The notes: generated by a model not told the origin, from the letters alone. Numbered from the stretch's first letter, positions 8,594 through 62,815 are shown. The stretch is DNA of 62,815 nucleotides from Leptolyngbyaceae cyanobacterium (GCA_036703985.1 DATNQN010000123.1:1-62815); one strand, 5' to 3'. Numbers and translations: made by a program.

Positions 8594-8769
8594 TTTTATA
8601 CCATTTCACTTAAGCGCTGTCACTTTTATATTTTGGCAGGGGGCAGGGGGCAGGGGGAAAGATTTGTGACACGGTTAAAGTTAATTGGTATTAGATTTTA
8701 GATTTTAGATTGAATTAACTTCCCAATCTAAAATCTAAAATCATCAAATCATGCCAAAAACAGATAACC

Positions 8770-8936
8770 CATCTGCGTTCATCTGCGTTCATCTGCGTTC
8801 ATCTGCGTTCATCTGCGGACATCTGCGGTAAAAAATCACCAGTAGATAGAAAATCAGTCAATCTAAAACCATCAATCCATGCCAAAAACAGATAACCCAT
8901 CTGTGTTCATCTGTGTTCATCTGTGGTCATCTGTGG
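8770..8936. repeat. STRR-type tandem decamer arrays: (CATCTGCGTT)x6 then, 70 bp later, (CATCTGTGTT/GT)x4 ending in GGTAAAAAA
   Basis: Direct reading at 8770-8829 and 8898-8936. The whole ~85-bp unit (ATCATGCCAAAAACAGATAACCCATCTG...) is itself duplicated in tandem. Confidence 0.75.
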
Positions 8937-9036
8937 TAAAAAAAAATCACCACCTTCCACCTTAGCTATAAATATACTTGTTTGTAGTGAGGACTTCAGT
9001 CCTCCCACCGCTATCAGCTAAGGACTAAAGCTCTTA

Positions 9037-9648
9037 CTACAAACTATGTTTACCAGCATACATAATATTATCCACCTGTTTAAGAAGATTCTCCAAAGTA
9101 GAAGAATTATCCAAAACCACATCAGCCATCTGACATTTTTCCTCAAGTGACATCTGACTATTAATTCTCGCTTCAGCTTGTTCTAAAGTTAACCCATCCC
9201 GATTTATCAATCTATCTAGTTGTTGTTGTTTTTCAGCAAAAACAACCCAAATTTCCGTAACTAAGCAAGTAATTTTTGCTTCAAATAATAAAGGAATAGC
9301 TAATACTGCTGTTGCATTTAAAGGTAATTCGTTAATGGCTTTTTGAAAGCGATCGCGCACGTAAGGATGAATTTGTTGTTCTAGCCAATGACGCTCATTT
9401 GGTTGATTAAAAATAATATTACCCAATTGCTTGCGGTCTAACTTTCCATCAGATATGAGAATATTTTTACCATATCTTTCTACAATTTTATCGAGAATAG
9501 GCGAACCCGGTTCAACTGCCTCGCGAGCATAAATATCGGCATCAAAAATCGGTATATTGTAAGTATTTGCCAGATAATTTGAAACAGTGGTTTTGCCAGT
9601 AGCAATTCCACCTGTTAAACCGATTATATGTTGAGATGATTTATTCAT
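9037..9648 (-). CDS. coaE: dephospho-CoA kinase
   Basis: N-terminal P-loop GLTGGIATGKTTVSNYL. 203 aa. Characteristic CoaE length and motif order. Confidence 0.85.
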   Translation of the reverse strand: MNKSSQHIIGLTGGIATGKTTVSNYLANTYNIPIFDADIYAREAVEPGSPILDKIVERYGKNILISDGKLDRKQLGNIIFNQPNERHWLEQQIHPYVRDRFQKAINELPLNATAVLAIPLLFEAKITCLVTEIWVVFAEKQQQLDRLINRDGLTLEQAEARINSQMSLEEKCQMADVVLDNSSTLENLLKQVDNIMYAGKHSL

Positions 9649-9763
9649 AATTAATTAGTTTATAGCAAATTTGGATAGGTTTAGATACCCGACTTCTTTA
9701 CTGCCTTCCTGCTAGAAGATTATGTATCATTCTTTTTCCCTTCTGCACCCCTGCGGCATCTAA

Positions 9764-10648
9764 CTATTGCCGTCTTAGATATTTCAATTGTCGCATTATT
9801 CTAGACCTTTGAGAAGCCATTTCCGGTCGGGTGAAAATTCCTTGGGTAGGACTAAACAGGAGAGCGAGGATAAACACTGCCGAAACAACTAAGACAATTG
9901 CCGCTCCCGATGGCACATTTAGATAATAACTAATATACATTCCAGCTACGCTACTAAAAACTCCAATTACTGCTCCCAATCCCATCATTTGATGTAATTC
10001 CTTCACTAATAGATAAGCAGTAATAGCTGGCCCGATGAGCAGGGAAACAACTAACACTACTCCTACTGCTTGCATACTAGCAATAATCGTGAGAGTAATG
10101 GCGGAAACTAACCCAATATTAATCAAATTTACGGGTAATCCGATCGCTTGTGCGCCCAAAGGATTAAATGTATAAAACAGCAATTCTTTATAGAAAAGTT
10201 TGACGAAAATCAGGACAAATAAAGTAATGACGAAAGTTCTCACTAAATCCGCACTGGTGACACCTAAAATATCGCCAAACAGAAAACTGTGTAAATCCAG
10301 TTTGCTTTTTAGCAGCGTAATCAGCATGATGCCCAATGCTAAAGAACCAGAAAAAACTAATGCCATTGCCGCATCGATTTTCACGCGAGATTGGGATTGA
10401 ATCCAGGCAATAACCAGAGTACTCAAGGTTCCTGAAATAAACGAACCAAGGAAAATATCAATACCTAAATAATATGCGATCGCTAATCCGGGCAAAACTG
10501 CATGGGCAATCACATCTCCCAATAATCCCATGCGTTGTACGATTAAATAACTACCGACAACTGCACAAAGAATACCCATCAAAATTGCGGTAGCGACGGC
10601 ATGGCGCATAAACTCAAATGAAAGCGGTTCAATTAGCCAATTCAACAT
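9764..10648 (-). CDS. znuB: metal (Zn/Mn) ABC transporter permease
   Basis: 294 aa, ~8 TM helices, ABC-3 permease family pattern. Co-operonic with ATPase. Zur box in the upstream divergent promoter. Confidence 0.7.
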   Translation of the reverse strand: MLNWLIEPLSFEFMRHAVATAILMGILCAVVGSYLIVQRMGLLGDVIAHAVLPGLAIAYYLGIDIFLGSFISGTLSTLVIAWIQSQSRVKIDAAMALVFSGSLALGIMLITLLKSKLDLHSFLFGDILGVTSADLVRTFVITLFVLIFVKLFYKELLFYTFNPLGAQAIGLPVNLINIGLVSAITLTIIASMQAVGVVLVVSLLIGPAITAYLLVKELHQMMGLGAVIGVFSSVAGMYISYYLNVPSGAAIVLVVSAVFILALLFSPTQGIFTRPEMASQRSRIMRQLKYLRRQ

Positions 10649-10656
10649 GATTTTGT

Positions 10657-11376
10657 TTATCTTTGCAATAAAATTACGCTGTCTCCGTAAGCTCGTTGGA
10701 TGTTCTCTGCGGTAATCACTTCCGATTTTGAACCATCCGCAATCAGAGATTTGTTAATTAACAAAAATCTGTCATATTTGCGAGAAGCTTCTCCCAATTC
10801 GTGACCGACTACTAGTACGATTTTTCCTTCATCTTTGAGTTCGTCAAATACTTCAAAAATAATCGCTTCTGTCTTTTTATCTACTCCCACAAATGGTTCA
10901 TCAAAAAAGAATAATTCTGCTTCTTGCGCCAATGCTTGTGCTAAAAATACTCGCTGCTGTTGTCCGCCAGATAATTCACCGATTTGTCTCCCTCTCAATT
11001 CCCACATTCCCACTCTTTCTAATGCCATTTTGACGATTTCTTTTGATTGGCGGGAGGGCGAACGAAACCATCCGGTATAGCGGGTACGCGCCATCATCAC
11101 CACATTCTGCACGGTGATGGGGTAGTCCCAGTCAATTTGCGATCGCTGCGGTACGTAAGCTACCTGCGCTAGTTGAGACTTCAGGGAACGCTGGCGATAT
11201 TTTACAACTCCTTGACTGGTGGGAATTAGCCCTAAAATTGCCTTCACCATCGTGCTTTTGCCAGCACCGTTTGGCCCGATTACCCCTACAATTTGTCCCG
11301 CCTCCAATCGGAAGCTGACATCCTCAACCGCAGAAATGCCTCGGTAGTTGACAGCGAGATTTAGAACCTCTAACAT
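10657..11376 (-). CDS. znuC: metal (Zn/Mn) ABC transporter ATP-binding protein
   Basis: Walker A GPNGAGKST. ABC signature LSGGQQQRV. Walker B FFFDEP. 8-bp gap to the permease gene. Confidence 0.75.
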   Translation of the reverse strand: MLEVLNLAVNYRGISAVEDVSFRLEAGQIVGVIGPNGAGKSTMVKAILGLIPTSQGVVKYRQRSLKSQLAQVAYVPQRSQIDWDYPITVQNVVMMARTRYTGWFRSPSRQSKEIVKMALERVGMWELRGRQIGELSGGQQQRVFLAQALAQEAELFFFDEPFVGVDKKTEAIIFEVFDELKDEGKIVLVVGHELGEASRKYDRFLLINKSLIADGSKSEVITAENIQRAYGDSVILLQR

Positions 11377-11394
11377 GATAGGTCTTTATTAGAA

Positions 11395-11409
11395 TGATAA
11401 TCATTATCA
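11395..11409. promoter_or_regulatory. Zur box (7-1-7 palindrome TGATAATCATTATCA) in the znuC/znuA divergent promoter
   Basis: Perfect inverted repeat read directly at 11395-11409. It lies 19 bp upstream of the znuC start and 20-47 bp upstream of znuA. It matches the cyanobacterial Zur/Fur-family operator architecture. Confidence 0.6.
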
Positions 11410-11428
11410 CATAAAAGGAGAGTCGATC

Positions 11429-12436
11429 GTGTTGCCAAACTGGAATTTCAAACCGATGGCGAGTTTTGCTATGTTAATTGGATTAATTGGTTGCAATCCT
11501 GGGCCATCTTCAACAACGGTTACTAATTCGATCGCACCCACGATATCCGATCGCCCGCAAGTTGTCGCGACTACCAGTGTTATTTGTGACTTAACAAAAC
11601 AAGTAGCTGGGGAGACAATCGACCTCAAATGTTTGCTAGGTGCAGGGGAAGATCCCCATATTTATCAACCTAAACCAGAAGACCGCAAAGCGATCGATCG
11701 CGCCCGATTAATTTTATATGCTGGTTATGATTTTGACACCAGCTTAATTCGATTAGTCAAAGCCACCAGCAATTCTGCGCCGAAAATTGCCGTACACGAA
11801 GCAGCAGTTCCCAACCCAATTATGGGGGAAGCGCACGAACATGGGGAGGCAGGACATCAACACAAATCAGATGAAACTGCGCCAGACCCCCATGTATGGC
11901 ATGATGCTAAAAATGGAATTGGCATGGTAAATACGATTTCTGATGCTTTAGAAAAGTTAGCACCAAACCACGCTTCATTATATGAGAAAAATAGCCAACA
12001 AATTATTAATGAATTAACTCAAATAGATACTTGGATTAAATCGCAAATTGCCACAATTCCACCCGCACGACGTAAGTTAGTAACTACTCACGATGCCTTG
12101 GGTTATTATGTGAAAGCTTACGGTCTTACTTATGAAGGTGCTTTGCAAGGATTTAGTAGCGAAGAAGCACCCACCGCTGCACGAGTAGGGGAATTGGTAA
12201 AAGATATCAAAAAAGCCAATGTTCCCACTATTTTTGCGGAAACTACTACTAATCCCAGGCTGATTGCTAATGTAGCGAAAGAAGCAAATGTGAAAGTTTC
12301 ACCGCGAGAATTATATGCCGATAGCTTAGGAGAAGCAGGGACAGAAGCGGAGACTTATCAAGAAATGCTGAAAGCTAACACTCGCACGATTGTAGAAGGT
12401 TTGGGTGGTAAATATACACCGTTTCAATTGAAATAA
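11429..12436 (+). CDS. znuA: metal ABC transporter substrate-binding lipoprotein with His-rich loop (ZnuA-type)
   Basis: Lipoprotein signal (LIGLIGCNPG). Cluster-9 SBP fold pattern. His/acidic loop HEHGEAGHQHKSDETAPDPH typical of Zn-specific ZnuA. GTG start at 11429 or ATG at 11456. Confidence 0.75.
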   Translation: MLPNWNFKPMASFAMLIGLIGCNPGPSSTTVTNSIAPTISDRPQVVATTSVICDLTKQVAGETIDLKCLLGAGEDPHIYQPKPEDRKAIDRARLILYAGYDFDTSLIRLVKATSNSAPKIAVHEAAVPNPIMGEAHEHGEAGHQHKSDETAPDPHVWHDAKNGIGMVNTISDALEKLAPNHASLYEKNSQQIINELTQIDTWIKSQIATIPPARRKLVTTHDALGYYVKAYGLTYEGALQGFSSEEAPTAARVGELVKDIKKANVPTIFAETTTNPRLIANVAKEANVKVSPRELYADSLGEAGTEAETYQEMLKANTRTIVEGLGGKYTPFQLK

Positions 12437-14079: not shown

Positions 14080-14117
14080 CACAGATGTCCACAGATGAAC
14101 ACAGATGAACACAGATG
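14080..14117. repeat. STRR octamer/decamer tandem repeat (CACAGATG A/T A)x4
   Basis: Direct reading. Reverse-complement version of the CATCTGTG repeats seen at 8.9, 37.4 and 41.4 kb. Confidence 0.7.
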
Positions 14118-14145
14118 TATATCTAGATCTTGTACTTGTGTTGAA

Positions 14146-14263
14146 AGTCAGCCTGGGGTTCAAACCCCAGGCTAAGAGCGAAAGTCCACTTAAGTGGACT
14201 GAAACTCTTATTTAGTCCACTTAAGTGGACTTTTGCTATGAGACGGGGAATTGATTCCCCGTC
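14146..14263. repeat. cluster of four stem-loops within 120 bp (GCCTGGGGTT/AACCCCAGGC; AGTCCACTTAAGTGGACT twice; GACGGGGAATTGATTCCCCGTC)
   Basis: All four perfect palindromes read directly. The 18-bp AGTCCACTTAAGTGGACT palindrome is duplicated 13 bp apart. Confidence 0.55.
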
Positions 14264-14326
14264 GGGTGAAAGCAACTGGTGCAAGATATCGGTATTATAT
14301 TTAGATTTTTTGTGAGGTGAGAGATT

Positions 14327-15244
14327 ATGACAACTACGATGAATTCTCCGATCGCAAATTCTACCCCCATCCCCAGTCGCATTGGCGGGAAAGTTGAGAA
14401 ATATAGTTGGAAATGGGAAAATCAGTCATTAAATATAGTTTATGAAACTTTAGGCGAGGGTACGCCTGTTTTACTTTTACCTGCTTTCAGTACCGTTTCT
14501 ACTCGCGGTGAAATGAGGGGATTGGCTGAAGGACTGGCATCTCAATTTCATGTGGTAGCTTTAGATTGGCCTGGTTTTGGCGAATCCGATCGCTTACCTC
14601 TGGATTACCGACCGGAATTATATCATCAATTTTTGTCAGATTTTGTTAAATCAGTTTTTAATACGTCAATAATTGCTGTAGCGGCTGGTCACGCGGCGGG
14701 TTATGCAATGCAGCTTGCTGTTTCCCAACCTGATGTTTTTTCTAAGATTGTTTTGGTAGCTCCCACTTGGCGTGGGCCATTACCGACGATGGGGGCAAAA
14801 AAAGCGATCGCAGATACGGTGAGAGAAACTGTGCGATCGCCTTTGCTGGGACAAGCGCTTTACAAAATGAACACCGTCCCATCTTTCCTCAAGTTCATGT
14901 ATCGCCAGCACGTCTACGCAGATCCCGCAAATTTGAGTGATGATTTTATCCAAGCAAAATATCAGATTACTCAACAACCAGGAGCTAGATTTGCGCCGGC
15001 AGCTTTTGTTACAGGAACTCTCGATCCCGTTCGCACCAGAGAAGATTTTCTGGCCATGTTTCAATCTTTACCCGCTCCCTTAATGGTAATTATTGGCGAA
15101 CAAGCACCGCGTTACTCAAAGGCGGAAATGGAAGCTTTAGCGCAAGTACCGGGAGTGCAGTCAGTAACGCTGACCGGTTCTTTGGGATTGCATGAAGAAT
15201 ATGCGGCGGCTGTAATAGAAGCCATTCAGCCATTTTTGGCATAA
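14327..15244 (+). CDS. alpha/beta-fold hydrolase
   Basis: 305 aa. Typical alpha/beta-hydrolase layout: HVVALDWPGFGESD and the nucleophile-elbow region AAGHAAGYAM. Confidence 0.6.
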   Translation: MTTTMNSPIANSTPIPSRIGGKVEKYSWKWENQSLNIVYETLGEGTPVLLLPAFSTVSTRGEMRGLAEGLASQFHVVALDWPGFGESDRLPLDYRPELYHQFLSDFVKSVFNTSIIAVAAGHAAGYAMQLAVSQPDVFSKIVLVAPTWRGPLPTMGAKKAIADTVRETVRSPLLGQALYKMNTVPSFLKFMYRQHVYADPANLSDDFIQAKYQITQQPGARFAPAAFVTGTLDPVRTREDFLAMFQSLPAPLMVIIGEQAPRYSKAEMEALAQVPGVQSVTLTGSLGLHEEYAAAVIEAIQPFLA

Positions 15245-15267
15245 AAAAATGGCGTGAAGTACAGGCT

Positions 15268-15301
15268 AGAAACCCGGTTTCTTGAAGAAACCGGGTTTTT
15301 G
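15268..15301. terminator. bidirectional intrinsic terminator between convergent genes, member of a conserved palindrome family (GAAACCCGGTTTCTTGAAGAAACCGGGTTTTT)
   Basis: 12-bp perfect stem, 6-nt loop, T-run on the plus strand. Near-identical copies at 36154 and 58716. Confidence 0.6.
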
Positions 15302-15391
15302 TTCTTGGCAGACGATCGTTTTATATGACAATGATTATCATTCATAAAAATTGTCGTGCCTAACGCACCATCCCGCCCACATTTTATCCCA

Positions 15392-16786
15392 TTAACTCGC
15401 CAGCACAGTTTCACGTTTTTTCAAAATAACTTTAATGCCATGTTCGGGACGAAGCGTAATAGAAGCTTGGGGTACTATGGGATGTTCCGGTAAAATACTC
15501 AATTCAAACTTTTGGATAATTGTTGCTAGTAATAAAACCGCTTCCATCATCGCAAAACCTTTGCCGATGCAAATGCGTGGCCCATCTCCGAAGGGAAAAT
15601 AAACGCCTCTGGGAAGCTGTTTTTCTAAATCTTCATTCCACCGTTCTGGTTTAAATTTTTCTGGTTGATCAAAGTAGCGAGGACTGCGGTGCATTACCCA
15701 CTGGCTAATCATGATATAGCATCCCGAAGGTACTTGATAAGGCCCAATTTGACAATCTTGAGCGGCTTGACGAGCAAAAATTGATACTGGTGGGTAAAGC
15801 CGCATCACTTCTTTGATTACCATGTTGGCATAGGGCAACTTTGAGATATCTTTAATAGTGGGAGAACGATCGTTTAAAACAGATTTGATTTCGGCAATCA
15901 ATTTATTTTGTACTTCTGGATGTTGAGATAAAAGCATCCACGTCCAAGATAAAGCATTAGCGGTAGTTTCATGTCCTGCCAACATCAAGGTTACCACTTC
16001 ATCCCGCAATTGTTTATCGTTCATTTGACTGCCATCTTCTTCATCCTTGGCTTGCATTAACATCGATAACAAATCACCGGGATTTTCTCCGCTATCGCGC
16101 CGTTGATTGATAATTTCGTAAATGGTTTTATCCATGTCTTGGATGGCATTTCTGTAGCGAATATTTTCCGGTCTGGGAAACCATTCCAGCACGAAAAATC
16201 CTTGTTTGCGCTTACTTTCAAACCAGTTCATCGCGACATCAAGGGCATGGGCTACTTTGTCGGCGTCTCCTTCTGTAATATCTTGATTAAACAAGCATTT
16301 CATCACTATATTTAAAGTGAGACGCATCATATCTTCGTGAATATCGCGCGTTTCTCCATCCTGCCAGGTAGCGAGCATTTGTTCGGTGTAGTCAACCATG
16401 ATTTGCCCGTACCCATCGATTCGCTTTTGGTGAAATACTGGTTGAATGAGGCGTCGCTGACGAAACCAAGATTCTCCTTCACTGCTGAGAAGTCCTTCAC
16501 CTATTAAGCTGCCTAGCGCCCGCAAACCTTTCGATTTAATAAATAAATTCCGGTCTTTTAGCACTTGTTCGATATACTCTGGGTGGTTCAACAAACAAGT
16601 GGGAGTCAGCCCCAGGCGTAACGGTACGATATCGCCATATTCACTAGCCCATTTAGTCAGAAAGCTTAACGGATCTTGTCCTAGTTCGCCTAAATTTCCG
16701 ATAATGGTATTTCCTTCTGGCCCTGATAATTCAAATAAATCTCGTGTCATTTTTGCTCCTAAAAAGCTTTGATTTCTGAGAGCCAA
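15392..16786 (-). CDS. cytochrome P450
   Basis: Heme-binding loop FPFGDGPRICIGKGFA. EXXR motif (EVMRLYPP). I-helix AGHETT. 464 aa. Confidence 0.85.
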   Translation of the reverse strand: MALRNQSFLGAKMTRDLFELSGPEGNTIIGNLGELGQDPLSFLTKWASEYGDIVPLRLGLTPTCLLNHPEYIEQVLKDRNLFIKSKGLRALGSLIGEGLLSSEGESWFRQRRLIQPVFHQKRIDGYGQIMVDYTEQMLATWQDGETRDIHEDMMRLTLNIVMKCLFNQDITEGDADKVAHALDVAMNWFESKRKQGFFVLEWFPRPENIRYRNAIQDMDKTIYEIINQRRDSGENPGDLLSMLMQAKDEEDGSQMNDKQLRDEVVTLMLAGHETTANALSWTWMLLSQHPEVQNKLIAEIKSVLNDRSPTIKDISKLPYANMVIKEVMRLYPPVSIFARQAAQDCQIGPYQVPSGCYIMISQWVMHRSPRYFDQPEKFKPERWNEDLEKQLPRGVYFPFGDGPRICIGKGFAMMEAVLLLATIIQKFELSILPEHPIVPQASITLRPEHGIKVILKKRETVLAS

Positions 16787-23593: not shown

Positions 23594-26233
23594 CTAAGAT
23601 AACTTACTTTTTTTAGATTTTATTAGTGATGTTAAAAGCATTCCTGCCTGAACAGGGTCAAAGTCACTGGGGAATTTAGTTTGATTGTTATACTCTGCCT
23701 GACTCAGTTTTGTCTCGCGGAAATTGACTCCAGTTAAATTGGCTCCCCGTAAATCTGCTTTACTTAAATCAGCATATTGTAGGTTGGCTCCCTCTAGATT
23801 TACTCCGTATAAATTTGTCCGATTTAGGTCTGCTTTTGTTAGATTTACTTCACTCAAATTTGCTTCATATAGGTTCGCTTTAGACAGGTTTACCTGATTG
23901 AGGTTTGCTTGAGTTAGATTTGCACCATTCAAATTCGCCTGACTTAATACTGCCTCACTCAAATTTGCCTCTAGTAAGTTTGCTCCCCGTAAGTTAGCTT
24001 TGCTTAGATTAGCTTTAATTAGGTTGGCTTTACTTAAATTAGCTTTACTTAGATTAGCCTCACTCAAGTCTACACTTGCCAAATTCATACCCGACAAGTC
24101 TAGTTTTTGCAGTGAAGCTTTAGGGCTAATTAGGCGCAACTCCGATCTAGAGATGTTAAACTCTTCTGAAAATTGAGTTGTTTGGTCGTAAAAAGCCATT
24201 TGCAATTTTGTTCCTGTTAAATTAGCTCCTCTGAGATTTGCCCCTCTCAAATCTGCTTGATTGAGGTTAGCTTCAGTTAAATTTGCTTCTTGCAAATCAG
24301 CTTTGTTCAGTTTAGCTTGAGTCAGGTCGGCTTGACTTAGATTAGTCTGACGTAGATTAATTCCATTTAAATCAGCATTTCTTAGAGAAGCACCAAAAAG
24401 GTTGGCTCCCTGTAGGTCTACTCCCCATCCAAATCTAGCCTGACATAGCTTGGCATCTGTTAAATTGGTTTTAGAAAGTTTTGTTGATTGCAAATTTGCC
24501 CCACTCAGATCTGCACCACTTAAATTGGCTTCACTTAAATTTATTGAATGCAAGTTTGCCTCACGCAAGTCAGACTGACTCAAGTCTAGTTTCTGTAAGT
24601 TAAGATTTGCCAGATTTACTTTTCTTAAACAGGCTTTAACAGAAAGTAAGTAAACTCCAAATGAATCAACGTCAAAAACTTGAGACTCCTCTTCATCATC
24701 AAAACAAACGCTTGGAAATTGAGTACCTTGGTTACAGATTGCCTCATTTAAATTTGCACGCCAAAGATTAGCATTATTCAAATTTGTATCAAGTAACTTA
24801 GCTCCACTCAAATTAGCATAACAAAGATCTGCTCCACTCAAGTTTACTCCTGTCAAATTAGCTTTAAATAAGTTAGCTTCAAATAAGTTAGCTTCACTTA
24901 AATTAGCTCCACTTAAATTAGCTTCACTCAGATTAGCCTCACTTAAATCTAACCCTGTAAACTCTCTTTGTCCCTCATGGTATTGTTTTATAACTTGATA
25001 AGCATCTTCATCAAGAACTTTCAAAATTTTAATACCATATTCTGATACTCGGTATAGTTTGCTATCTTCTTCATCCTGCCACCAAGCATCTTCAACCTCA
25101 CCTTCACCAGCCTTTACCTGCCAAATAGCTTCTCTAGGTGAGGTAGCAAAAACACGCATATATATTTTTTCGTTATCATAATAACGCTCGCGATCGTATT
25201 CTTTTTCTTTAACTACCGAGCAGGAGACGTAGACAAAATAATCTCCACATTTACTAAACAAATATTTTTCGTGGTAATTTTTAGCTACTGTAAATTTTTT
25301 ACTATATAATTGAGTTTTTTCAGAAACCTCAGCTTCTGTTTCAAGTTGACATTTCCAAATATCCATAGGTGCGACTGTATAGTAATCGCTATCCCAAATA
25401 TCAACTTCAGTTTCACAATCACCACAACCATCACCTACGATCTCAATAGCTGTTTCAGGTGATGTAGCTTCAACACGGACTTTCATGTACTTTACATTAT
25501 CAGGAAGTTGGCTATCAATTTCAGCTTTCCACTCTTGTCCCTCTTTATAAGGGACATACACAATATAGTTTTCAGTGAATTCTATAGCTCCAGTCTCTTC
25601 AGGCTCAAAATCTTGTGGAAATACGGTTTTTTTATCATAAATGGCATCGTTCAAGGAAGCATTTTCAGAGTCATCATTCCGCCAATCTTTCAATAATTCG
25701 GCATACTCTAAGTTAGCCCCTCGTAAATTTGTATTATCTAAGTTTGCTCCTAACAGTTTGGCAAACTTTAAGTTTGCTTCCTGCAAGTTAGCACCTTGCA
25801 AATTACAGCCTTGTAGTTTAGCCTTTTCCAAGTTAGCTTTTTGCAGATTAGCTCCACTTATATTTCCCAGTTTTGACCATCTCAAATCTGCCCCTGTTAG
25901 GTTAGTTTGACTCAAGTTAGTAAGTAAACTTGCGCCTCTACAATCTGCTAATTCAAAGTTTGCATTTTGAACTTTAGTATTGCTGAGATTGGCATCCCAA
26001 AGAATTACCCCTTTAAGATTCGCACCATTCAGATCGGCATACTCTAAATCTGCTCGATCTAGGTTTGCATTTTGCAGATTAGCACCACTCAAATTGGTTT
26101 TACTTAATTCTGCTTTTTCTAGTTTTATATCTGTGAGATTACAGCCACTTAAGTTAGCTTCACAAAGATTTACTTCACTAAAATCACGTTCTCCTGCTGC
26201 GTATCGTCTCAACAATTCTTCAGCATTTATCAT
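23594..26233 (-). CDS. large bipartite pentapeptide-repeat protein (879 aa) with a central non-repeat domain
   Basis: Long runs of A(D/N)LxxANLxx pentapeptides in the N- and C-terminal thirds. ~230-aa non-repeat middle. N-terminal ELLRRYAAGERDF motif. Confidence 0.85.
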   Translation of the reverse strand: MINAEELLRRYAAGERDFSEVNLCEANLSGCNLTDIKLEKAELSKTNLSGANLQNANLDRADLEYADLNGANLKGVILWDANLSNTKVQNANFELADCRGASLLTNLSQTNLTGADLRWSKLGNISGANLQKANLEKAKLQGCNLQGANLQEANLKFAKLLGANLDNTNLRGANLEYAELLKDWRNDDSENASLNDAIYDKKTVFPQDFEPEETGAIEFTENYIVYVPYKEGQEWKAEIDSQLPDNVKYMKVRVEATSPETAIEIVGDGCGDCETEVDIWDSDYYTVAPMDIWKCQLETEAEVSEKTQLYSKKFTVAKNYHEKYLFSKCGDYFVYVSCSVVKEKEYDRERYYDNEKIYMRVFATSPREAIWQVKAGEGEVEDAWWQDEEDSKLYRVSEYGIKILKVLDEDAYQVIKQYHEGQREFTGLDLSEANLSEANLSGANLSEANLFEANLFKANLTGVNLSGADLCYANLSGAKLLDTNLNNANLWRANLNEAICNQGTQFPSVCFDDEEESQVFDVDSFGVYLLSVKACLRKVNLANLNLQKLDLSQSDLREANLHSINLSEANLSGADLSGANLQSTKLSKTNLTDAKLCQARFGWGVDLQGANLFGASLRNADLNGINLRQTNLSQADLTQAKLNKADLQEANLTEANLNQADLRGANLRGANLTGTKLQMAFYDQTTQFSEEFNISRSELRLISPKASLQKLDLSGMNLASVDLSEANLSKANLSKANLIKANLSKANLRGANLLEANLSEAVLSQANLNGANLTQANLNQVNLSKANLYEANLSEVNLTKADLNRTNLYGVNLEGANLQYADLSKADLRGANLTGVNFRETKLSQAEYNNQTKFPSDFDPVQAGMLLTSLIKSKKSKLS

Positions 26234-46137: not shown

Positions 46138-47133
46138 TTACTCGTGACGGCTGCCATCAGGCATCGTAGCTCCGGTTAGAATAGCTTCTGGCCAGTATGC
46201 TTCTTCTCGCTTGAGATACGCTCCTCTCAAGCTAGCTCCCGTCAAATCAGCCCCTCGTAGTTGCGCCACGTTAAAATTAGCGCCCCACAAATAAGCGCCC
46301 CGCAAACTGGCATTGCTCAGATTGACATCGCTGAGATTTGCCATATTTAAATTAGCGCCAGTCAAATCTGCATCGCTCAGATTAGCTTCGCTTAAATCTG
46401 CTTTACTCAAATTAGCTTCGCACAAATCAGCTTTTGTAATCGTTGCACAAGTTAAATTAGCTGCATGGAGATTTGCTCTTGCTAATAGCGATACCCGCAA
46501 TTGTGCAGAAGTAAAGTTAGTAGCGCACAAATTAGAACCGCTTAAGTTGGCTCCGCTCAGTTTAGCCTCGCTTAAATTTACTCCATCTAAATCTATGCGG
46601 TTCAAATCTACACCATTCATAAAAGCTTTACTTAGTTTTACTCCATTTAAAGAAGCTCCCCGCAATAAAGCACCGCTTAATCTGGCACCAGTTAAATTAG
46701 ACCAATTCAGATTAGCATTTACCAAGTTAGCAGAGCGCAAATTAATTCCCCGTAAATCTGCACCGCACAGGTTAACACCCTCTAAGTTAGCCAAACGCAA
46801 ATTGACGCCCAGTAGTATGGCTCCAGCTAATCGCGTACCGACTAGCACCGATTTGACAAAATAAGCTCCTTGCAGGTTAGCTTTTGTTAAATCTGCGTCT
46901 GAAAGGTTTGCTTCATTAACTTTAGCAAAACTTAAATTCGTGCGATGTAAAAAAGCTCCGATGAAAATCGCTCCTGTTAGGTGAGTGCGGCTCAGATTGG
47001 CTGCTGCTAGGTAGGCGTCAGAAAAGTTAGCGCCTTCTAAGTTGGCATTTTCTAGATTAGCTCCGATCAGGTTGACGCCCCGAAAATCTCTTTCTCCTGC
47101 CGCATAACGTTTTAGTAATTCATTGGCATCCAT
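46138..47133 (-). CDS. pentapeptide-repeat protein (331 aa)
   Basis: Continuous A(N/D)LxxA(N/D)L repeats. N-terminal ELLKRYAAGERDF motif. C-terminal GATMPDGS(R/L)HE. Confidence 0.85.
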   Translation of the reverse strand: MDANELLKRYAAGERDFRGVNLIGANLENANLEGANFSDAYLAAANLSRTHLTGAIFIGAFLHRTNLSFAKVNEANLSDADLTKANLQGAYFVKSVLVGTRLAGAILLGVNLRLANLEGVNLCGADLRGINLRSANLVNANLNWSNLTGARLSGALLRGASLNGVKLSKAFMNGVDLNRIDLDGVNLSEAKLSGANLSGSNLCATNFTSAQLRVSLLARANLHAANLTCATITKADLCEANLSKADLSEANLSDADLTGANLNMANLSDVNLSNASLRGAYLWGANFNVAQLRGADLTGASLRGAYLKREEAYWPEAILTGATMPDGSRHE

Positions 47134-48329: not shown

Positions 48330-49319
48330 TTACTCGTGGAGAGAGCCATCTGGCATCGTAGCACCGCTTAAGATTGCCTGCTGACAATCGACTCCTTCCA
48401 TATATGCTCCGCGCAGACTAGCACCGCTCATATCGCAACCCCGCAAGTAGGCAGAATTCAGGTTAGCACCCCACAAATAAGCATTCCGGAGACTAGCATT
48501 AGTTAAGTCTGCTTCGCACAATCTAGCTACGTTCAGATTAGCTCCAGTTAAGTCTGCTTCGCTTAAATCAGCTAATGATAAATCTGCCTTACTGAGATCC
48601 GCTTCGCACAAGTCTGCTTTAAATAGTACGGCTTTATTCAGATTGGCTGCATGGAGATTCGATCGCGATAGAATAGAAACTCTTAATTGAGCATTACTCA
48701 AATTGCTAGCAGAAAGATTAGCGCCGCTCAAATTAGCGCCGCTCAGCTTGGCATCGCTTAAGTTTACCCCATCCAAATCAACGTTGTTGAAATCTACTCC
48801 ATTTAACAAAGCACCGCTGAAAGTCACGCCATTTAGTAATGCTCCTCGAAGTAACGCACCACTCAATCTCGCCCCGCTCAAATTAGCCCAACTTAGATTA
48901 GCATTCATTAAGTTGGCAGAACGCAAATTAATTCCTCGTAAATCCGCTCCACAAAGGTTAACTCCTTGTAAATTAGCTAAATGTAAATTCACCGATGTGA
49001 GAATTGCTCCGCTCAACTTTGTCCCTACCAAGATTGATTTAGCGAAGTAAGCTCCTTGTAAGTTCGCTTTTGTCAAATCTGCTTCTGTTAGTCTTGCTTC
49101 GTTCACTTTGGCATAGCTTAAATTTACTCGATGCAAAAAAGCACCAGTGAAATTAGTACCCGTCAGCCAAGTTCTACTGAGATTTGCAGTCGCCAAGAAA
49201 GCTTCTGAAAAATTTGCCCCTACTAAGTTTGCTCTTTCTAGATCGACTCCAATCAAGTTCGCTCCTCGAAAATCTCTTTCTCCCGCAGCATAACGTTTGA
49301 GCAGTTCATCGGTATCCAT
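48330..49319 (-). CDS. pentapeptide-repeat protein (329 aa), paralog of 46138-47133
   Basis: Collinear with the 46138-47133 protein over the whole length, including the identical N-terminal ELLKRYAAGERDFRG and C-terminal SGATMPDGSLHE. Confidence 0.85.
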   Translation of the reverse strand: MDTDELLKRYAAGERDFRGANLIGVDLERANLVGANFSEAFLATANLSRTWLTGTNFTGAFLHRVNLSYAKVNEARLTEADLTKANLQGAYFAKSILVGTKLSGAILTSVNLHLANLQGVNLCGADLRGINLRSANLMNANLSWANLSGARLSGALLRGALLNGVTFSGALLNGVDFNNVDLDGVNLSDAKLSGANLSGANLSASNLSNAQLRVSILSRSNLHAANLNKAVLFKADLCEADLSKADLSLADLSEADLTGANLNVARLCEADLTNASLRNAYLWGANLNSAYLRGCDMSGASLRGAYMEGVDCQQAILSGATMPDGSLHE

Positions 49320-59426: not shown

Positions 59427-61583
59427 TCATTTTGGCACAGACCAAGAACGAACTTCGCCCAAAGTGACGGGAATTCTGTCACTCACATCAACGGTAAACC
59501 GATAAACCCTCTTCGCCCTGCGACTGTTTTCCGGATCGAAAAACTTTAATATCACATCCCAACAATCGCTATTAATCCGACAAAACGGGCTTTTTTCTAC
59601 TTCAATCGTATCGAGTTGCATTCCTCTGGAAATCGCTTCAGCGAAGCTCGAAGCTGCTTGGAAAGCGTTAGTAACGGAAAAATTCAACGCCCTGTCTTTA
59701 GAAGTTTGTCCTAAATTTTGGAACTCAAAATAAACTTTATTTACGAAGCTAATAAGAGCTTGTCGCATGGCAATTTCATCAACTTGCGGTGCTTGGGCAG
59801 CGACACTTTGCAAAGCTGCTTCGACTAAATTGTTGATTTTCCAACCGTACATTCCCCTGATATTGATTAAGGTAATTACGGGAATTTCTTGCCCTGAAAA
59901 TAGCTGCACGGTTTTATCGGTGGTTTTGGCGGGAATGCTGACACGTTCGATAAAATCATCGCTGTCTTCCGGTTCAATTTGTCCCGCCAACATCAGGATC
60001 AATGTTTCGTAGACATCCGCAGCAAAACCCTGTCTTGGTTCTAAGACATAAATGGGTTTAAGTTCTTGATTGAGCGTCCAAATTAAGGCTTTGGCTTCAC
60101 TGGGATTTTCTGAGAGATAATCGACCATTTGACGGGCATCGTAGGGATTGGGGGGAATTACTGTACCGTCAATTTCAAATGCTGGCATGAGTTGTTTGAA
60201 GGTGTCGCGCCTAGCTTCGCTGCCAAAGTCGTAACCGATGGTTCCCAAGGCGTAGACGAGTTTGGAGGCGGCGCTGGGAGTGATGCCTTCGGTGGGTTGA
60301 CTGGGGGTGAGGGTAACAACCGTTGTATTGGATGGTTGCGTTGTACCGCAGTCCGCCTGGGAATCAGTGATGCTGTTGGCGAATTCGGAAAACCTAACCC
60401 CCCAACCCCCTTCCCTCGCAGGGAAGGGGGAGTCCGAAAGCCCCTCTCCTCTTAGGGGAGGGGTTGGGGAGGGGTCATACCCCTCAGTTAATTTAGCAAC
60501 AGCATCGTTGATTTCCGGGTGAATTGTGCTAAAAGGTTGAATACTGGTTAACGGTTCTCCGGTTAGTAATTGGAATGCACCGGGAATATTTAATTTACCC
60601 ATTAAACAGCGTTCCGGTTCTTCTACTTCTTTAGGGTTGCAAGGAATAGCACTATTTAAAATAGCTTGGCGAACTGCCTCGGCATCGGGTTTTTCGCCGC
60701 GTTGCAGTTGTATGCTCATTAATAATGCTGAGATTCCGGTAACAATGGGTGCAGCGCAACTGGTGCCTTTTTCGCGAATCGGTTCGTCGGTTCCCGGTTG
60801 TGCGCCTAAGATATTTTCCCCATTTGCCATTACGCCTTTACTTTGATAATCTCCACCATAATTACTGAATTTAAAAGGTTGTCCGTCATCGCGGATTGCA
60901 CCGACAGTAAGGACTCCGGGAAGAATGGCAGGAATGCACCAACATTCTCCTTTGTTGTTGCCACCAGGAGCGACAATTAAAATATTATTGTCTTGGCATT
61001 GTTTGACAGCACGAGCAAATAATTCATGGGATACCCCTGTTTGAGTGGGGTGACAGGCGGCGATGTGGATAATGTTTGCGCCTGCTTTTAAGGCTTCGTT
61101 GATAGCGTGGGTGAGGTTAATGGGAGAGATGAAGTCATCGCCTGCGAAGGAAATGGGAATATTAATAGCCGTGCAATGGGGGGCAATGCCGGGGACGGGT
61201 GAACCGTGTTGTCCTAAGATGGTACTGGCAATGTGGGTGGCATGACTGGATAAGTCGATGCGTCTGCGAATCTGTTCGGGGAACCGGGCAAAAAAGGCTT
61301 CTCTTTCTTTTTTGGTTTCGTCCTTGTTGTGGTCTGGGTCTGCTTCTTTTTTGGCTTTTTGTTGTTGGTTAAATTCTGTAGCTAATTTAAGGTAGTAATA
61401 ATATTCGTCGTTTAGTTCGATATCTTCTGCCCAATAAGGTTTAAATTGGGTAATGTTTGCGCCAACAAAGCAACCCCGTTCTAAGTCTGCTGCACCGTCG
61501 AGGATGGCGATTTTGATGCGGGGGTCGCCTTTTGTCCGCTTCCAAAGTTCCGGTATTCCGGGGATGGTGATGAGGTCGGGCAT
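59427..61583 (-). CDS. patA: cyanobactin N-terminal protease PatA/AcyA homolog: S8 subtilisin-like domain plus PatA/PatG-type C-terminal domain
   Basis: Catalytic triad blocks ILDGAADLERGCF (Asp), SHATHIASTILGQHGSPVPGIAPHC (His) and GTSCAAPIVTGISALLMS (Ser). The C-terminal ~250 aa, ending CRINSDCWDVILKFFDP...YRFTVDVSD..PVTLGEVRSWSV, match the domain shared by PatA and PatG. Confidence 0.8.
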   Translation of the reverse strand: MPDLITIPGIPELWKRTKGDPRIKIAILDGAADLERGCFVGANITQFKPYWAEDIELNDEYYYYLKLATEFNQQQKAKKEADPDHNKDETKKEREAFFARFPEQIRRRIDLSSHATHIASTILGQHGSPVPGIAPHCTAINIPISFAGDDFISPINLTHAINEALKAGANIIHIAACHPTQTGVSHELFARAVKQCQDNNILIVAPGGNNKGECWCIPAILPGVLTVGAIRDDGQPFKFSNYGGDYQSKGVMANGENILGAQPGTDEPIREKGTSCAAPIVTGISALLMSIQLQRGEKPDAEAVRQAILNSAIPCNPKEVEEPERCLMGKLNIPGAFQLLTGEPLTSIQPFSTIHPEINDAVAKLTEGYDPSPTPPLRGEGLSDSPFPAREGGWGVRFSEFANSITDSQADCGTTQPSNTTVVTLTPSQPTEGITPSAASKLVYALGTIGYDFGSEARRDTFKQLMPAFEIDGTVIPPNPYDARQMVDYLSENPSEAKALIWTLNQELKPIYVLEPRQGFAADVYETLILMLAGQIEPEDSDDFIERVSIPAKTTDKTVQLFSGQEIPVITLINIRGMYGWKINNLVEAALQSVAAQAPQVDEIAMRQALISFVNKVYFEFQNLGQTSKDRALNFSVTNAFQAASSFAEAISRGMQLDTIEVEKSPFCRINSDCWDVILKFFDPENSRRAKRVYRFTVDVSDRIPVTLGEVRSWSVPK
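60393..60476. repeat. GC-rich palindromic small dispersed repeat inserted in-frame in the patA-like linker (encodes PPLRGEGLSDSPFPAREGGWGV)
   Basis: Two adjacent hairpins CCCCCTTCCC-TCGCA-GGGAAGGGGG and CCCCTCTCC-TCTTA-GGGGAGGGG, flanked by CCCCAACCCCC / GGGGTTGGGG. Related to the element at 53942-53991. Confidence 0.5.
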
Positions 61584-61926: not shown

Positions 61927-62103
61927 TTACTCCGCGTCGTCGCCCACAAACGGAGTTTGATAACAAAAATACCTATCTTCCGTTTTATCACAATGAGTAA
62001 ATCCGAAAAGGGGAACCACCCCTTTTTTTCCCGCCCAAGAAGTGGCAGTGATTTCGCGTTGCACAGGAGCAACTTGTTGGGGTCTAATATTTTTCTTTCT
62101 CAT
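61927..62103 (-). CDS. cyanobactin (anacyclamide-type) precursor peptide, 58 aa from the internal Met
   Basis: Leader MRKKNIRPQQVAPVQRE carries the conserved KKNxxPxQxxPVxR cyanobactin motif. C-terminal ...CYQTP-FVGDDAE-stop is the F(A/V)GDDAE C-terminal recognition tail, preceded by Pro. Confidence 0.7.
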   Translation of the reverse strand: MRKKNIRPQQVAPVQREITATSWAGKKGVVPLFGFTHCDKTEDRYFCYQTPFVGDDAE

Positions 62104-62177
62104 GATTGTTTGTTTCAAGCTTACTTGTTGGGATTGATTATTGACTTAATCCATTGGCTTGTCAATGCTGATACAGA

Positions 62178-62339
62178 TTACTCTGCGTCGTCGTCCGCAA
62201 AAGGAACGGCGTGGACCCACAAGGACGCCCCCACACCCACGGCGGCGGCGAACATAGCCAGCGGGCCGCGGGAGGTGCTACCAGCTTGGGGACGTTCAAC
62301 GGGAGCAGCCTGAGTGGGTTTTAGGTTTCTTTTTTTCAT
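62178..62339 (-). CDS. cyanobactin (anacyclamide-type) precursor peptide, 53 aa from the internal Met
   Basis: Leader MKKRNLKPTQAAPVERP. C-terminal ...GVGAS-LWVHAVP-FADDDAE-stop. Second precursor gene 60 bp upstream of the first, same strand. Confidence 0.7.
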   Translation of the reverse strand: MKKRNLKPTQAAPVERPQAGSTSRGPLAMFAAAVGVGASLWVHAVPFADDDAE

Positions 62340-62529
62340 GGTGTTTGAGTTCGGAGAGAACTTGTTTGATGCCAATTGTTGATTACTTAATAACTTCTGT
62401 CAAGATTCTATTGAGTTAACTTTTGTCAATGGCTCAAATACCACCCAAAACGCAACATTGAGTAGATTTTAAACTTTTATATAATAATCCTTGAGGGCGC
62501 GCATTTTATTAATAATAATGATATCGTTC

Positions 62530-62815
62530 CTACTCAACCAAACGCTTATGGGTAGTCTTCGACTCAGCTATCCAACTCATGTAAGGTTTAAGATGGCGTT
62601 CCACAAACTCCAACATCGGTGGATTGCGGCTACTAACAGCATAAGCATAATAGGGAATTGCGCGATCGTACTGACGCTGAAATGACTCTGCCATTAGCAC
62701 GATTCCTCGTCCCAAACGCTGCCATCTTTTGTCCACAAACATAGAGGTGTAGCGAAGTGTGTCAGGTGCAACGCGGTGAGTTACCATCCAACCCACGACT
62801 TCACCTTGATAGCGC
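62530..62815 (-). CDS. GNAT-family N-acetyltransferase, N-terminally truncated by the window edge
   Basis: VDKRWQRLGRGIVLM equals the acetyl-CoA-binding (R/Q)xxGxG/A motif. The reading frame is open to the last base of the window. Confidence 0.4.
   Translation of the reverse strand, partial: RYQGEVVGWMVTHRVAPDTLRYTSMFVDKRWQRLGRGIVLMAESFQRQYDRAIPYYAYAVSSRNPPMLEFVERHLKPYMSWIAESKTTHKRLVE

Follow-up and report, generated by a model that had tools for sequence, protein, structure and literature searches.

A cyanobactin precursor gene with a predicted heptapeptide core, LWVHAVP, in a multi-precursor gene cluster

The stretch of DNA analyzed here (62,815 nucleotides, hereafter the window) carries a short gene, E1, whose translation is laid out as MKKRNLKPTQAAPVERPQAGSTSRGPLAMFAAAVGVGAS-LWVHAVP-FADDDAE (Table 1). 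The gene starts with an ATG at 62339 and ends with a TAA at 62180..62178 on the minus strand; a mechanical ORF list begins this frame at an upstream TTG (62375), and all homologs begin at the ATG. In profile searches, E1 scored 42.5 bits against TIGR04446 (E 6e-11; curated cut-off, 35 bits) and 39 bits against PF19158 (curated cut-off, 25 bits). Residues 3–16, KRNLKPTQAAPVER, keep the spacing of KKNxxPxxxxPVxR, the N-terminal leader motif of such precursors (PMC3428304), with Arg replacing the second Lys. A protein search with E1 found 17 relatives with a common leader, 15 of them full-length, and these 15 together with E1 formed the set used for alignment and statistics (n = 16). A protein identical to E1 was also called on four independent Logan metagenome contigs, one of which was ~0.7% divergent from the window within the overlap. 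Exact look-up in the assembly collection matched E1 itself, with no match for the PatG of the window. Because the profile scores exceed the cut-offs, the gene lies in a cluster context and relatives share its leader, E1 is a real gene, and a random ORF and an annotation artefact were both rejected on the basis of these scores, the genomic context and the homologs. E1 is an ordinary cyanobactin precursor gene of the anacyclamide/piricyclamide family, and its peptide is encoded exactly where the initial annotation had placed it, as judged from the translations and the family cut-offs.

Table 1. Features of the cyanobactin locus. Coordinates are those of the window, except for E0, which lies on the metagenome contig L001.
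Feature	Coordinates	Strand	Remarks
G-type protease/macrocyclase gene	59427..61583	minus	718 aa; TIGR03895, 868 bits; 343 bases 3' of E2
Precursor gene E2	61927..62103	minus	58 aa, MRKKNIRPQQVAPVQREITATSWAGKKGVVPLFGFTHCDKTEDRYFCYQTPFVGDDAE; leader class different from that of E1; 75 bases 3' of E1
Promoter-like site TTGACA-17-AATAAT	62137..62165	minus	5' of E2; consensus match 11/12
Precursor gene E1	62178..62339	minus	53 aa + stop, MKKRNLKPTQAAPVERPQAGSTSRGPLAMFAAAVGVGASLWVHAVPFADDDAE
Putative C-terminal recognition sequence FADDDAE	62181..62201	minus	FAGDDAE variant; from translation (FADDDAE and stop, 62178..62201)
Predicted core LWVHAVP, residues 40–46	62202..62222	minus	translation; hypervariable block in protein and DNA alignments
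GVGAS, putative A-protease recognition site	62223..62237	minus	predicted cut after Ser39; translation, position statistics and analogy
E1 leader peptide, residues 1–39	62223..62339	minus	K(K/R)NxxPxxxxPVxR motif, GVGAS end; conserved in relatives
Promoter-like site TTGACA-17-AACAAT	62375..62403	minus	36 bases 5' of E1 ATG; consensus match 10/12
196-aa protein gene, 3' part	62530..62815	minus	faint GNAT Pfam match; cut by window end
Third precursor gene E0	L001 4949-5089	plus	46 aa, MTKKNLRPQQVAPVQRETNATLSGEKGASASFITAILPPFAGDDAE; beyond window end

The second precursor gene reported in tandem with E1 is real as well, E2 scoring 68.6 bits against TIGR04446. An exact TTGACA with a 17-base spacer was observed ~35 bases 5' of each of the two genes, and the region holds 6 promoter-like sites versus 1.9 ± 1.2 in shuffled sequence. 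That each precursor has such a site of its own suggests that they may be separately transcribed cassettes. The closest named relatives of the locus were Microcoleus sp. SVA1_B3 (L006, ~90% DNA identity in PatG) and a Kamptonema MAG (L007), and another MAG, L005, showed 91–97% identity in the locus flanks. The predicted core of E2, FGFTHCDKTEDRYFCYQTP, has 19 residues with two Cys and recurs unchanged behind differing leaders in three genomes (the window; L005, 10236-10412; a Kamptonema MAG, P0021), and the loop C-x2-TEDRY(F/Y)-C is kept in two more relatives (P0027 and P0029). Its retention within a hypervariable family suggests that E2 gives rise to a conserved, probably disulfide-bridged product beside variable ones.

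The G-type protease consists of a subtilisin domain with an N-terminal insert, PatG_D and PatG_C, the oxidase domain being absent. Its residues 7–348 span the whole of the PatG macrocyclase structures 4AKS, 4AKT and 4H6X, whereas PatA structures align from residue 110 only, and these alignment spans indicate that it carries the N-terminal insert typical of macrocyclases. A TPR fragment and then a hybrid histidine kinase, located 3' of this gene, mark the end of the cluster. On the other side of E1, the 196-aa protein had no match in an NCBIfam search; its L006 homolog is longer (301 aa) and matches GNAT models. Of the four metagenome contigs, L001 is the longest, at 8551 bases; it matches the final 1139 bases of the window with 100% identity and carries, in order, the 196-aa GNAT-like gene, DUF29, a Uma2 endonuclease and E0, followed by the divergent PatA (659 aa, 959 bits), PatB, PatC and a 549-aa protein. 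Thus, E0 is separated from E1 by the Uma2, DUF29 and GNAT-like genes; its predicted core is FITAILPP or SFITAILPP, preceded by a third leader class that ends in GEKGASA. If L001 belongs to the same genome as the window, which we assume, the cluster has A, B, C and G and three precursors in the bidirectional C-B-A / E…G layout of the acy, tri and sph clusters. The 549-aa protein of L001 (191-1840, minus), made up of two tandem halves, also adjoins PatC in L006 (5253-6896, minus; ~548 aa). It showed a weak, sub-threshold match to the VWA domain and may be a conserved accessory gene of Microcoleus-type cyanobactin clusters.

The leader and the core of E1 were delimited by comparison with its relatives. 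All 16 sequences have in common the consensus MKKRNLKP(T/N)Q(T/A)APVERPQ(A/S/T)GSTS…PLAMFA(A/S), followed by a Gly/Val/Ala-rich run to V-G-A-S (alignment A1). After V-G-A-(S/A) come 7–20 hypervariable residues, of which the final Pro alone is conserved, and then FAGDDAE. Relative to the predicted cut in E1, the fourth residue before it is Val throughout (16/16), the third is Gly in 13 sequences and the second is Ala in 15, while the residue directly before the cut is semi-conserved (S 10/16, A 3/16, others C, Q and G) and no residue exceeds 2/16 at the first position past it. In a DNA alignment of six genes (A3), a conserved upstream region and leader were followed by an unalignable block and then by CCTTTTGCGGGCGACGACGCGGAGTAATC. 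BLAST homology between the window and L005 extended from the window end to 62224, within the Ser39 codon, and ended there. The L005 gene in the position of E1, after the GNAT gene, reads MKKRSLKPAQTAPVERPQAGSTSRDPLAMFAAGGVGAS-TSMDWRIPPPPPPGTSMGWQIPPPPPP-FAGDDAE; its leader is kept through GVGAS, but its core of 26 residues is unrelated to LWVHAVP in spite of the similar flanks. This predicted L005 core (gene at 8744-8962, plus) is unusual for a cyanobactin, as it contains an internal duplication and, twice, a row of seven prolines.

Experimentally anchored precursors offered a reference for the position of the cut. Cleavage by PatA is known to follow GLEAS (PMC4282754). In Anabaena sp. 90, AcyE, which we identified by an exact look-up match as MTKKNIRPQQVAPVERETISTAKDQSGQVQAQTSQIWGSPVPFAGDDAE, gives anacyclamide A10, TSQIWGSPVP (PMC2854353), and a sister precursor in strain 1tu31s9 gives B10, SSVIWGSPVP; the sequence and these products therefore place the cut directly after …VQAQ. 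A scan of metagenomes with a degenerate DNA pattern that encodes the piricyclamide core TFCDLATKQCYP recovered a PirE4-type precursor of 51 aa, MKTPKLTPRITAPVQRDNIATVPSDGNVITPA-TFCDLATKQCYP-FAGDDAV (L008–L011), with the junctions …ITPA/TFCDLATKQCYP/FAGDDAV (slashes denote cuts here and below). PirE4 has 51 aa, and its product was confirmed via heterologous expression (PMC3428304). With the four verified cores, the sum 32 + core + 7 gives exactly the lengths reported for PirE1–4 (48, 53, 51 and 51). The column entropy of 96 pir-type leaders rose from 0.08 to 1.22 and then to 3.44 at positions 31 (Pro), 32 (Leu in 79%) and 33, respectively, and this jump agrees with the 32-residue leader implied by the PirE lengths. 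In all anchored precursors, conservation ends exactly at the cut, which lies one residue past a conserved Ala or Pro. Presumed PagE and PirE sequences, with and without Leu after GLTP, had no exact match in the collection, and a 713-aa concatenate of 21 experimentally known cores with a generic leader and tail yielded 8000 word candidates and no significant protein-database match.

In E1, the Ala/Pro + 1 rule of the verified precursors falls after GVGAS, and a core of seven residues is for this reason best supported, with the cut G-V-G-A-S / L-W-V-H-A-V-P, whose exact N-terminal site we infer from this analogy. The GVGAS site and the core LWVHAVP that had been proposed from the sequence are supported at the level of sequence analysis: GVGAS sits at the leader/core junction according to the position statistics (n = 16) and the analogy with GLEAS, and both the conservation boundary and the break in L005 homology lie directly after it. 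A longer core including AAAVGVGAS, given as an alternative in the initial annotation, is disfavored because this stretch belongs to the block conserved across the family. By inspection, the three precursors of the cluster, with the junction motifs GVGAS, GVVPL and GASAS, all fit G-(V/A)-x-(A/P)-x before the cut (GVGAS/LWVHAVP, GVVPL/FGFTH… and GASAS/FITAILPP), which matches the requirement of one A protease. The leader class of E1, …PLAMFAAGGVGAS (full form, …PQAGSTSR(D/G)PLAMFAAGGVGAS), was met only in Microcoleus/Kamptonema-like sequences. We found no characterized product for this class of 39–41-residue leaders (…PQAGSTSRDPLAMFAAGGVGAS), and a literature search for GVGAS/LAMFAAGG and the three core strings gave nothing relevant.

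A true precursor could also be cut elsewhere by the A protease, and the resulting ring would then be larger: SLWVHAVP, ASLWVHAVP or the 13-mer VGVGASLWVHAVP, the last being roughly the longer alternative mentioned above. The residue before the cut varies (S, A, C, Q or G), and AcyE-type recognition sequences have been described as substantially unlike those of other cyanobactins (PMC2854353). Moreover, the extra Ala/Val-rich AAAVGVGAS of E1 supplies alternative Ala-x sites, and the cut after FAAA that would release the 13-mer likewise has Ala two residues before it. However, V-G-A-S is conserved (V 16/16, G 13/16, A 15/16) while verified cores are hypervariable, the homology with the same-position L005 gene breaks exactly after GVGAS, and verified cuts always coincide with the conservation boundary. 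We consider a larger ring unlikely. The calculated [M+H]+ values would be 890.4883 for cyclo(SLWVHAVP), 961.5254 for cyclo(ASLWVHAVP) and 1273.7051 for cyclo(VGVGASLWVHAVP).

At the other end of the core, Pro46 is followed by FADDDAE, in which 6 of 7 residues equal those of FAGDDAE, with Gly changed to Asp. P/FAGDDAE is the characterized C-terminal site of the proline-specific macrocyclase PagG (bioRxiv 10.1101/2020.03.17.996157). Among ~155 family sequences examined, FADDDAE was found in two, E1 and an intact L005 precursor (9617-9778). Maturation of E1 may be envisaged as follows. The 39-residue leader bears the motif KRNxxPxxxxPVxR; the A protease, whose gene lies just past the window end, would cleave after GVGAS and leave a free amino group on Leu40; and the G macrocyclase would bind FADDDAE, cleave after Pro46 via an acyl-enzyme intermediate and couple Pro46 to Leu40, giving the homodetic heptapeptide cyclo(LWVHAVP). 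We infer that FADDDAE is accepted by the G macrocyclase and that the peptide is made. A heptapeptide ring, as suggested initially, is within the known size range of the family, which includes anacyclamides A7 (RERFVYP) and B7 (LIGIMHP), prenylagaramide B (INPYLYP) and autumnalamide A (GLDFRFP); cyclo(INPYLYP) was produced in vitro by PagG (PMC12814516). The calculated monoisotopic mass of cyclo(LWVHAVP) is 802.449, with [M+H]+ at 803.4562, compared with 821.4668 for linear LWVHAVP. LWVHAVP and the other core strings of the cluster had no match in the searchable literature, and cyclo(LWVHAVP), if made, would add to the cyanobactins a new hydrophobic member of very small size whose mass can be predicted. 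Overall, it appears fairly likely that E1 is a functional-looking precursor in a heterocyclase-free, proline-type pathway of a filamentous, Microcoleus/Kamptonema-like cyanobacterium and leads to unmodified cyclo(LWVHAVP).

Comparison of the window (62100-62345, minus) with L005 (8738-8990 and 9611-9860) pointed to a mixed origin of E1. Its 5' half, comprising the promoter-like region and the leader, matches the same-position L005 precursor, while its 3' end, from the Pro codon, is nearly identical to another L005 precursor, that at 9617-9778 with the leader MTKKNIRPQQAAPVQRETGAVNF…. The nearly identical stretch includes the FADDDAE tail and the entire spacer to the next gene start, and the window lacks this precursor and one more, both lying between the two in L005. 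E1 therefore seems to be a recombination or deletion product of cassettes, and looks like a chimera in which the leader of one gene and the tail and spacer of another enclose a new core of 7 codons. If this is true, cassette recombination, rather than point mutation alone, would generate new cores in natural populations. A leader class without a characterized product, a single A/G pair serving three junctions and a chimeric E1 are together a combination that we put forward only tentatively, its joint chance being somewhat short of even.

The number of precursor genes per cyanobactin cluster is known to reach ten; pag has seven and mon has five. The initial idea of a combinatorial library at one locus is accordingly sound in that multiple precursors are present, here at least three, but such arrays are already well documented and the idea is not new. 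Decayed-looking precursor genes, which keep the leader and have lost the P-FAGDDAE tail, were observed in related clusters (L005, 2878-3030 and 7162-7308; P0016 and P0018), showing turnover of precursor genes. In L006, genes similar to REP-associated tyrosine transposases lie among the precursors (10966-11730 and 14081-14842, both minus), with scores of ~61 bits, under the 80-bit cut-off of the model.

The same comparison raises the question of whether E1 has a mature product at all. As a recent recombinant cassette, with two halves that match different L005 precursors, it might be transcribed or simply kept and yet poorly processed because of its FADDDAE tail or its very short hydrophobic core. 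The G-to-D change in FAGDDAE is rare, decayed genes occur in the related clusters noted above, and silent or undetected piricyclamide precursors have been documented (PMC3428304, Table 1). On the other hand, the E1 ORF is intact with every motif in frame, four contigs, including the one with ~0.7% divergence, carry it unchanged, it has a promoter-like site of its own, and FADDDAE is also present in an intact L005 precursor. Macrocyclases of the PagG class are, in addition, promiscuous toward cores and accept 7-mers. The absence of a product from E1 is improbable in our estimate.

With regard to tailoring enzymes, the PatF prenyltransferase of L006 had no tblastn match in the window or in either L001 or L005, the best E value being 6.8. 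A domain scan that covered most window ORFs of ~290 aa or more, together with those close to the cluster, likewise showed neither a YcaO heterocyclase domain nor a prenyltransferase domain. In L006, a PatF-family gene (14858-15739; TIGR04445, 271 bits) is located between the precursors and PatG, and the E2-PatG spacer at this position in the window has 343 bases, too short for patF. Since these searches of the window and its extension turned up neither a prenyltransferase nor a heterocyclase, we expect an unmodified ring. The prenylated or geranylated variants that had been suggested for this peptide are without genetic support at this locus, as tblastn found no F gene in the window or the extension, and prenylation as the default expectation was rejected. 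Further modification of the LWVHAVP ring by enzymes encoded elsewhere, either prenylation or geranylation of Trp or His or epimerization as in autumnalamide A, is very improbable: the core does have Trp and His, two residues on which known cyanobactin prenyltransferases act (PMC11774001), the related L006 cluster has its PatF-family gene, and a prenyltransferase gene could sit elsewhere in the genome, but PatF homologs are absent from the 62.8 kb window, its 8.5 kb extension and L005, the short spacer occupies the place of patF, and non-prenylated products are common in the family.

Several features of E1 and its cluster can be compared with those of known systems. The acy system of Anabaena sp. 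90 is similar to E1 in its KKNxxPxxxxPVxR motif, single hypervariable core ending in Pro and acidic tail F-A-x-D-D-A-E, and the two clusters have in common A, B and C divergent from E...G, no heterocyclase and a G without an oxidase domain. Acy rings have 7–20 residues, a range whose lower end equals the ring size predicted for E1. However, the E1 leader has 39 aa and belongs to a distinct class, compared with 32 for AcyE, and its junction, GVGAS, is nearer to the GLEAS of patellamides than to the GQVQAQ of AcyE. Furthermore, acy has one precursor and a prenyltransferase, whereas in the E1 cluster at least three precursors were found but no prenyltransferase. The pir (Microcystis) and pag (Planktothrix) clusters resemble the E1 cluster in having several precursor genes with hypervariable cores (7–17 residues in pir and pag). 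In pir and pag, P/FAGDDAE is processed by a proline-specific macrocyclase, and each precursor has its own promoter, to which the promoter-like sites of E1 and E2 may correspond. Their two-Cys cores, which form a disulfide, may be compared with that of E2. Their leaders end in …GGTGLTPL or …NVITPA, in contrast to …GGVGAS in E1, the tail of E1 is FADDDAE, and both pir and pag encode a prenyl or geranyl transferase, unlike the E1 cluster, in which none was found.

The closest taxonomic neighborhood, Microcoleaceae, is represented by aut (Phormidium autumnale) and mon (Microcoleaceae LEGE 16532). These clusters likewise have several precursors (two to five) and small rings, among them the 7-mer GLDFRFP, and they also yield congeners without a prenyl group. 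Both of them, unlike the E1 cluster, carry an F prenyltransferase, and no aut or mon core equals LWVHAVP. The lengths of AutE1 (47 aa) and AutE2 (49 aa) imply leaders of ~32–33 residues versus 39 in E1, which argues against their membership in the leader class of E1. The PatE site, G(L/V)E(A/P)S, is similar to the E1 junction in having G-hydrophobic-x-(A/P)-S directly before the core, with the A-protease cut after Ser. In contrast to E1, PatE has multiple cores that are terminated by Cys or a heterocycle, AYDGE-type C-terminal sites and a need for the heterocyclase D. Patellamide-type features are absent in the E1 cluster, which has no YcaO domain among the ORFs scanned and no G oxidase domain; in E1, a Pro closes the core and is followed by the tail FADDDAE.

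These comparisons support the view that the predicted cyclo(LWVHAVP) would be an undescribed compound of a well-known kind. The underlying biology, in which ribosomal precursors with hypervariable cores, several of them in one cluster, are processed by two proteases, is already well established, and we do not expect it to surprise specialists. The value of the locus lies in its offering a single protease pair three natural substrates whose leaders differ, with no tailoring enzymes found. It could help define A-protease recognition in proline-type pathways, which is less well defined than in patellamide pathways, and could supply enzymes for peptide cyclization.

Some additional features of the window were observed. 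A G+C-rich palindromic element, CCCCAACCCCCTTCCCT…AGGGAAGGGGG…GGGGAGGGGTTGGGGAGGGGT, lies in frame inside the PatG gene (60400-60475), in the linker that joins the protease domain to the C-terminal domains, with the translation …PTPPLRGEGLSDSPFPAREGGWGVRF…; the PatG genes of L006 and L005 fail to align over this stretch. The remaining window ORFs that were scanned encode ordinary cyanobacterial chromosomal functions unrelated to the cluster, such as hybrid sensor kinases, ZnuA and a P450. The window also codes for three pentapeptide-repeat proteins, one of them of 879 aa (46138-47133, 48330-49319 and 23594-26233, all minus).
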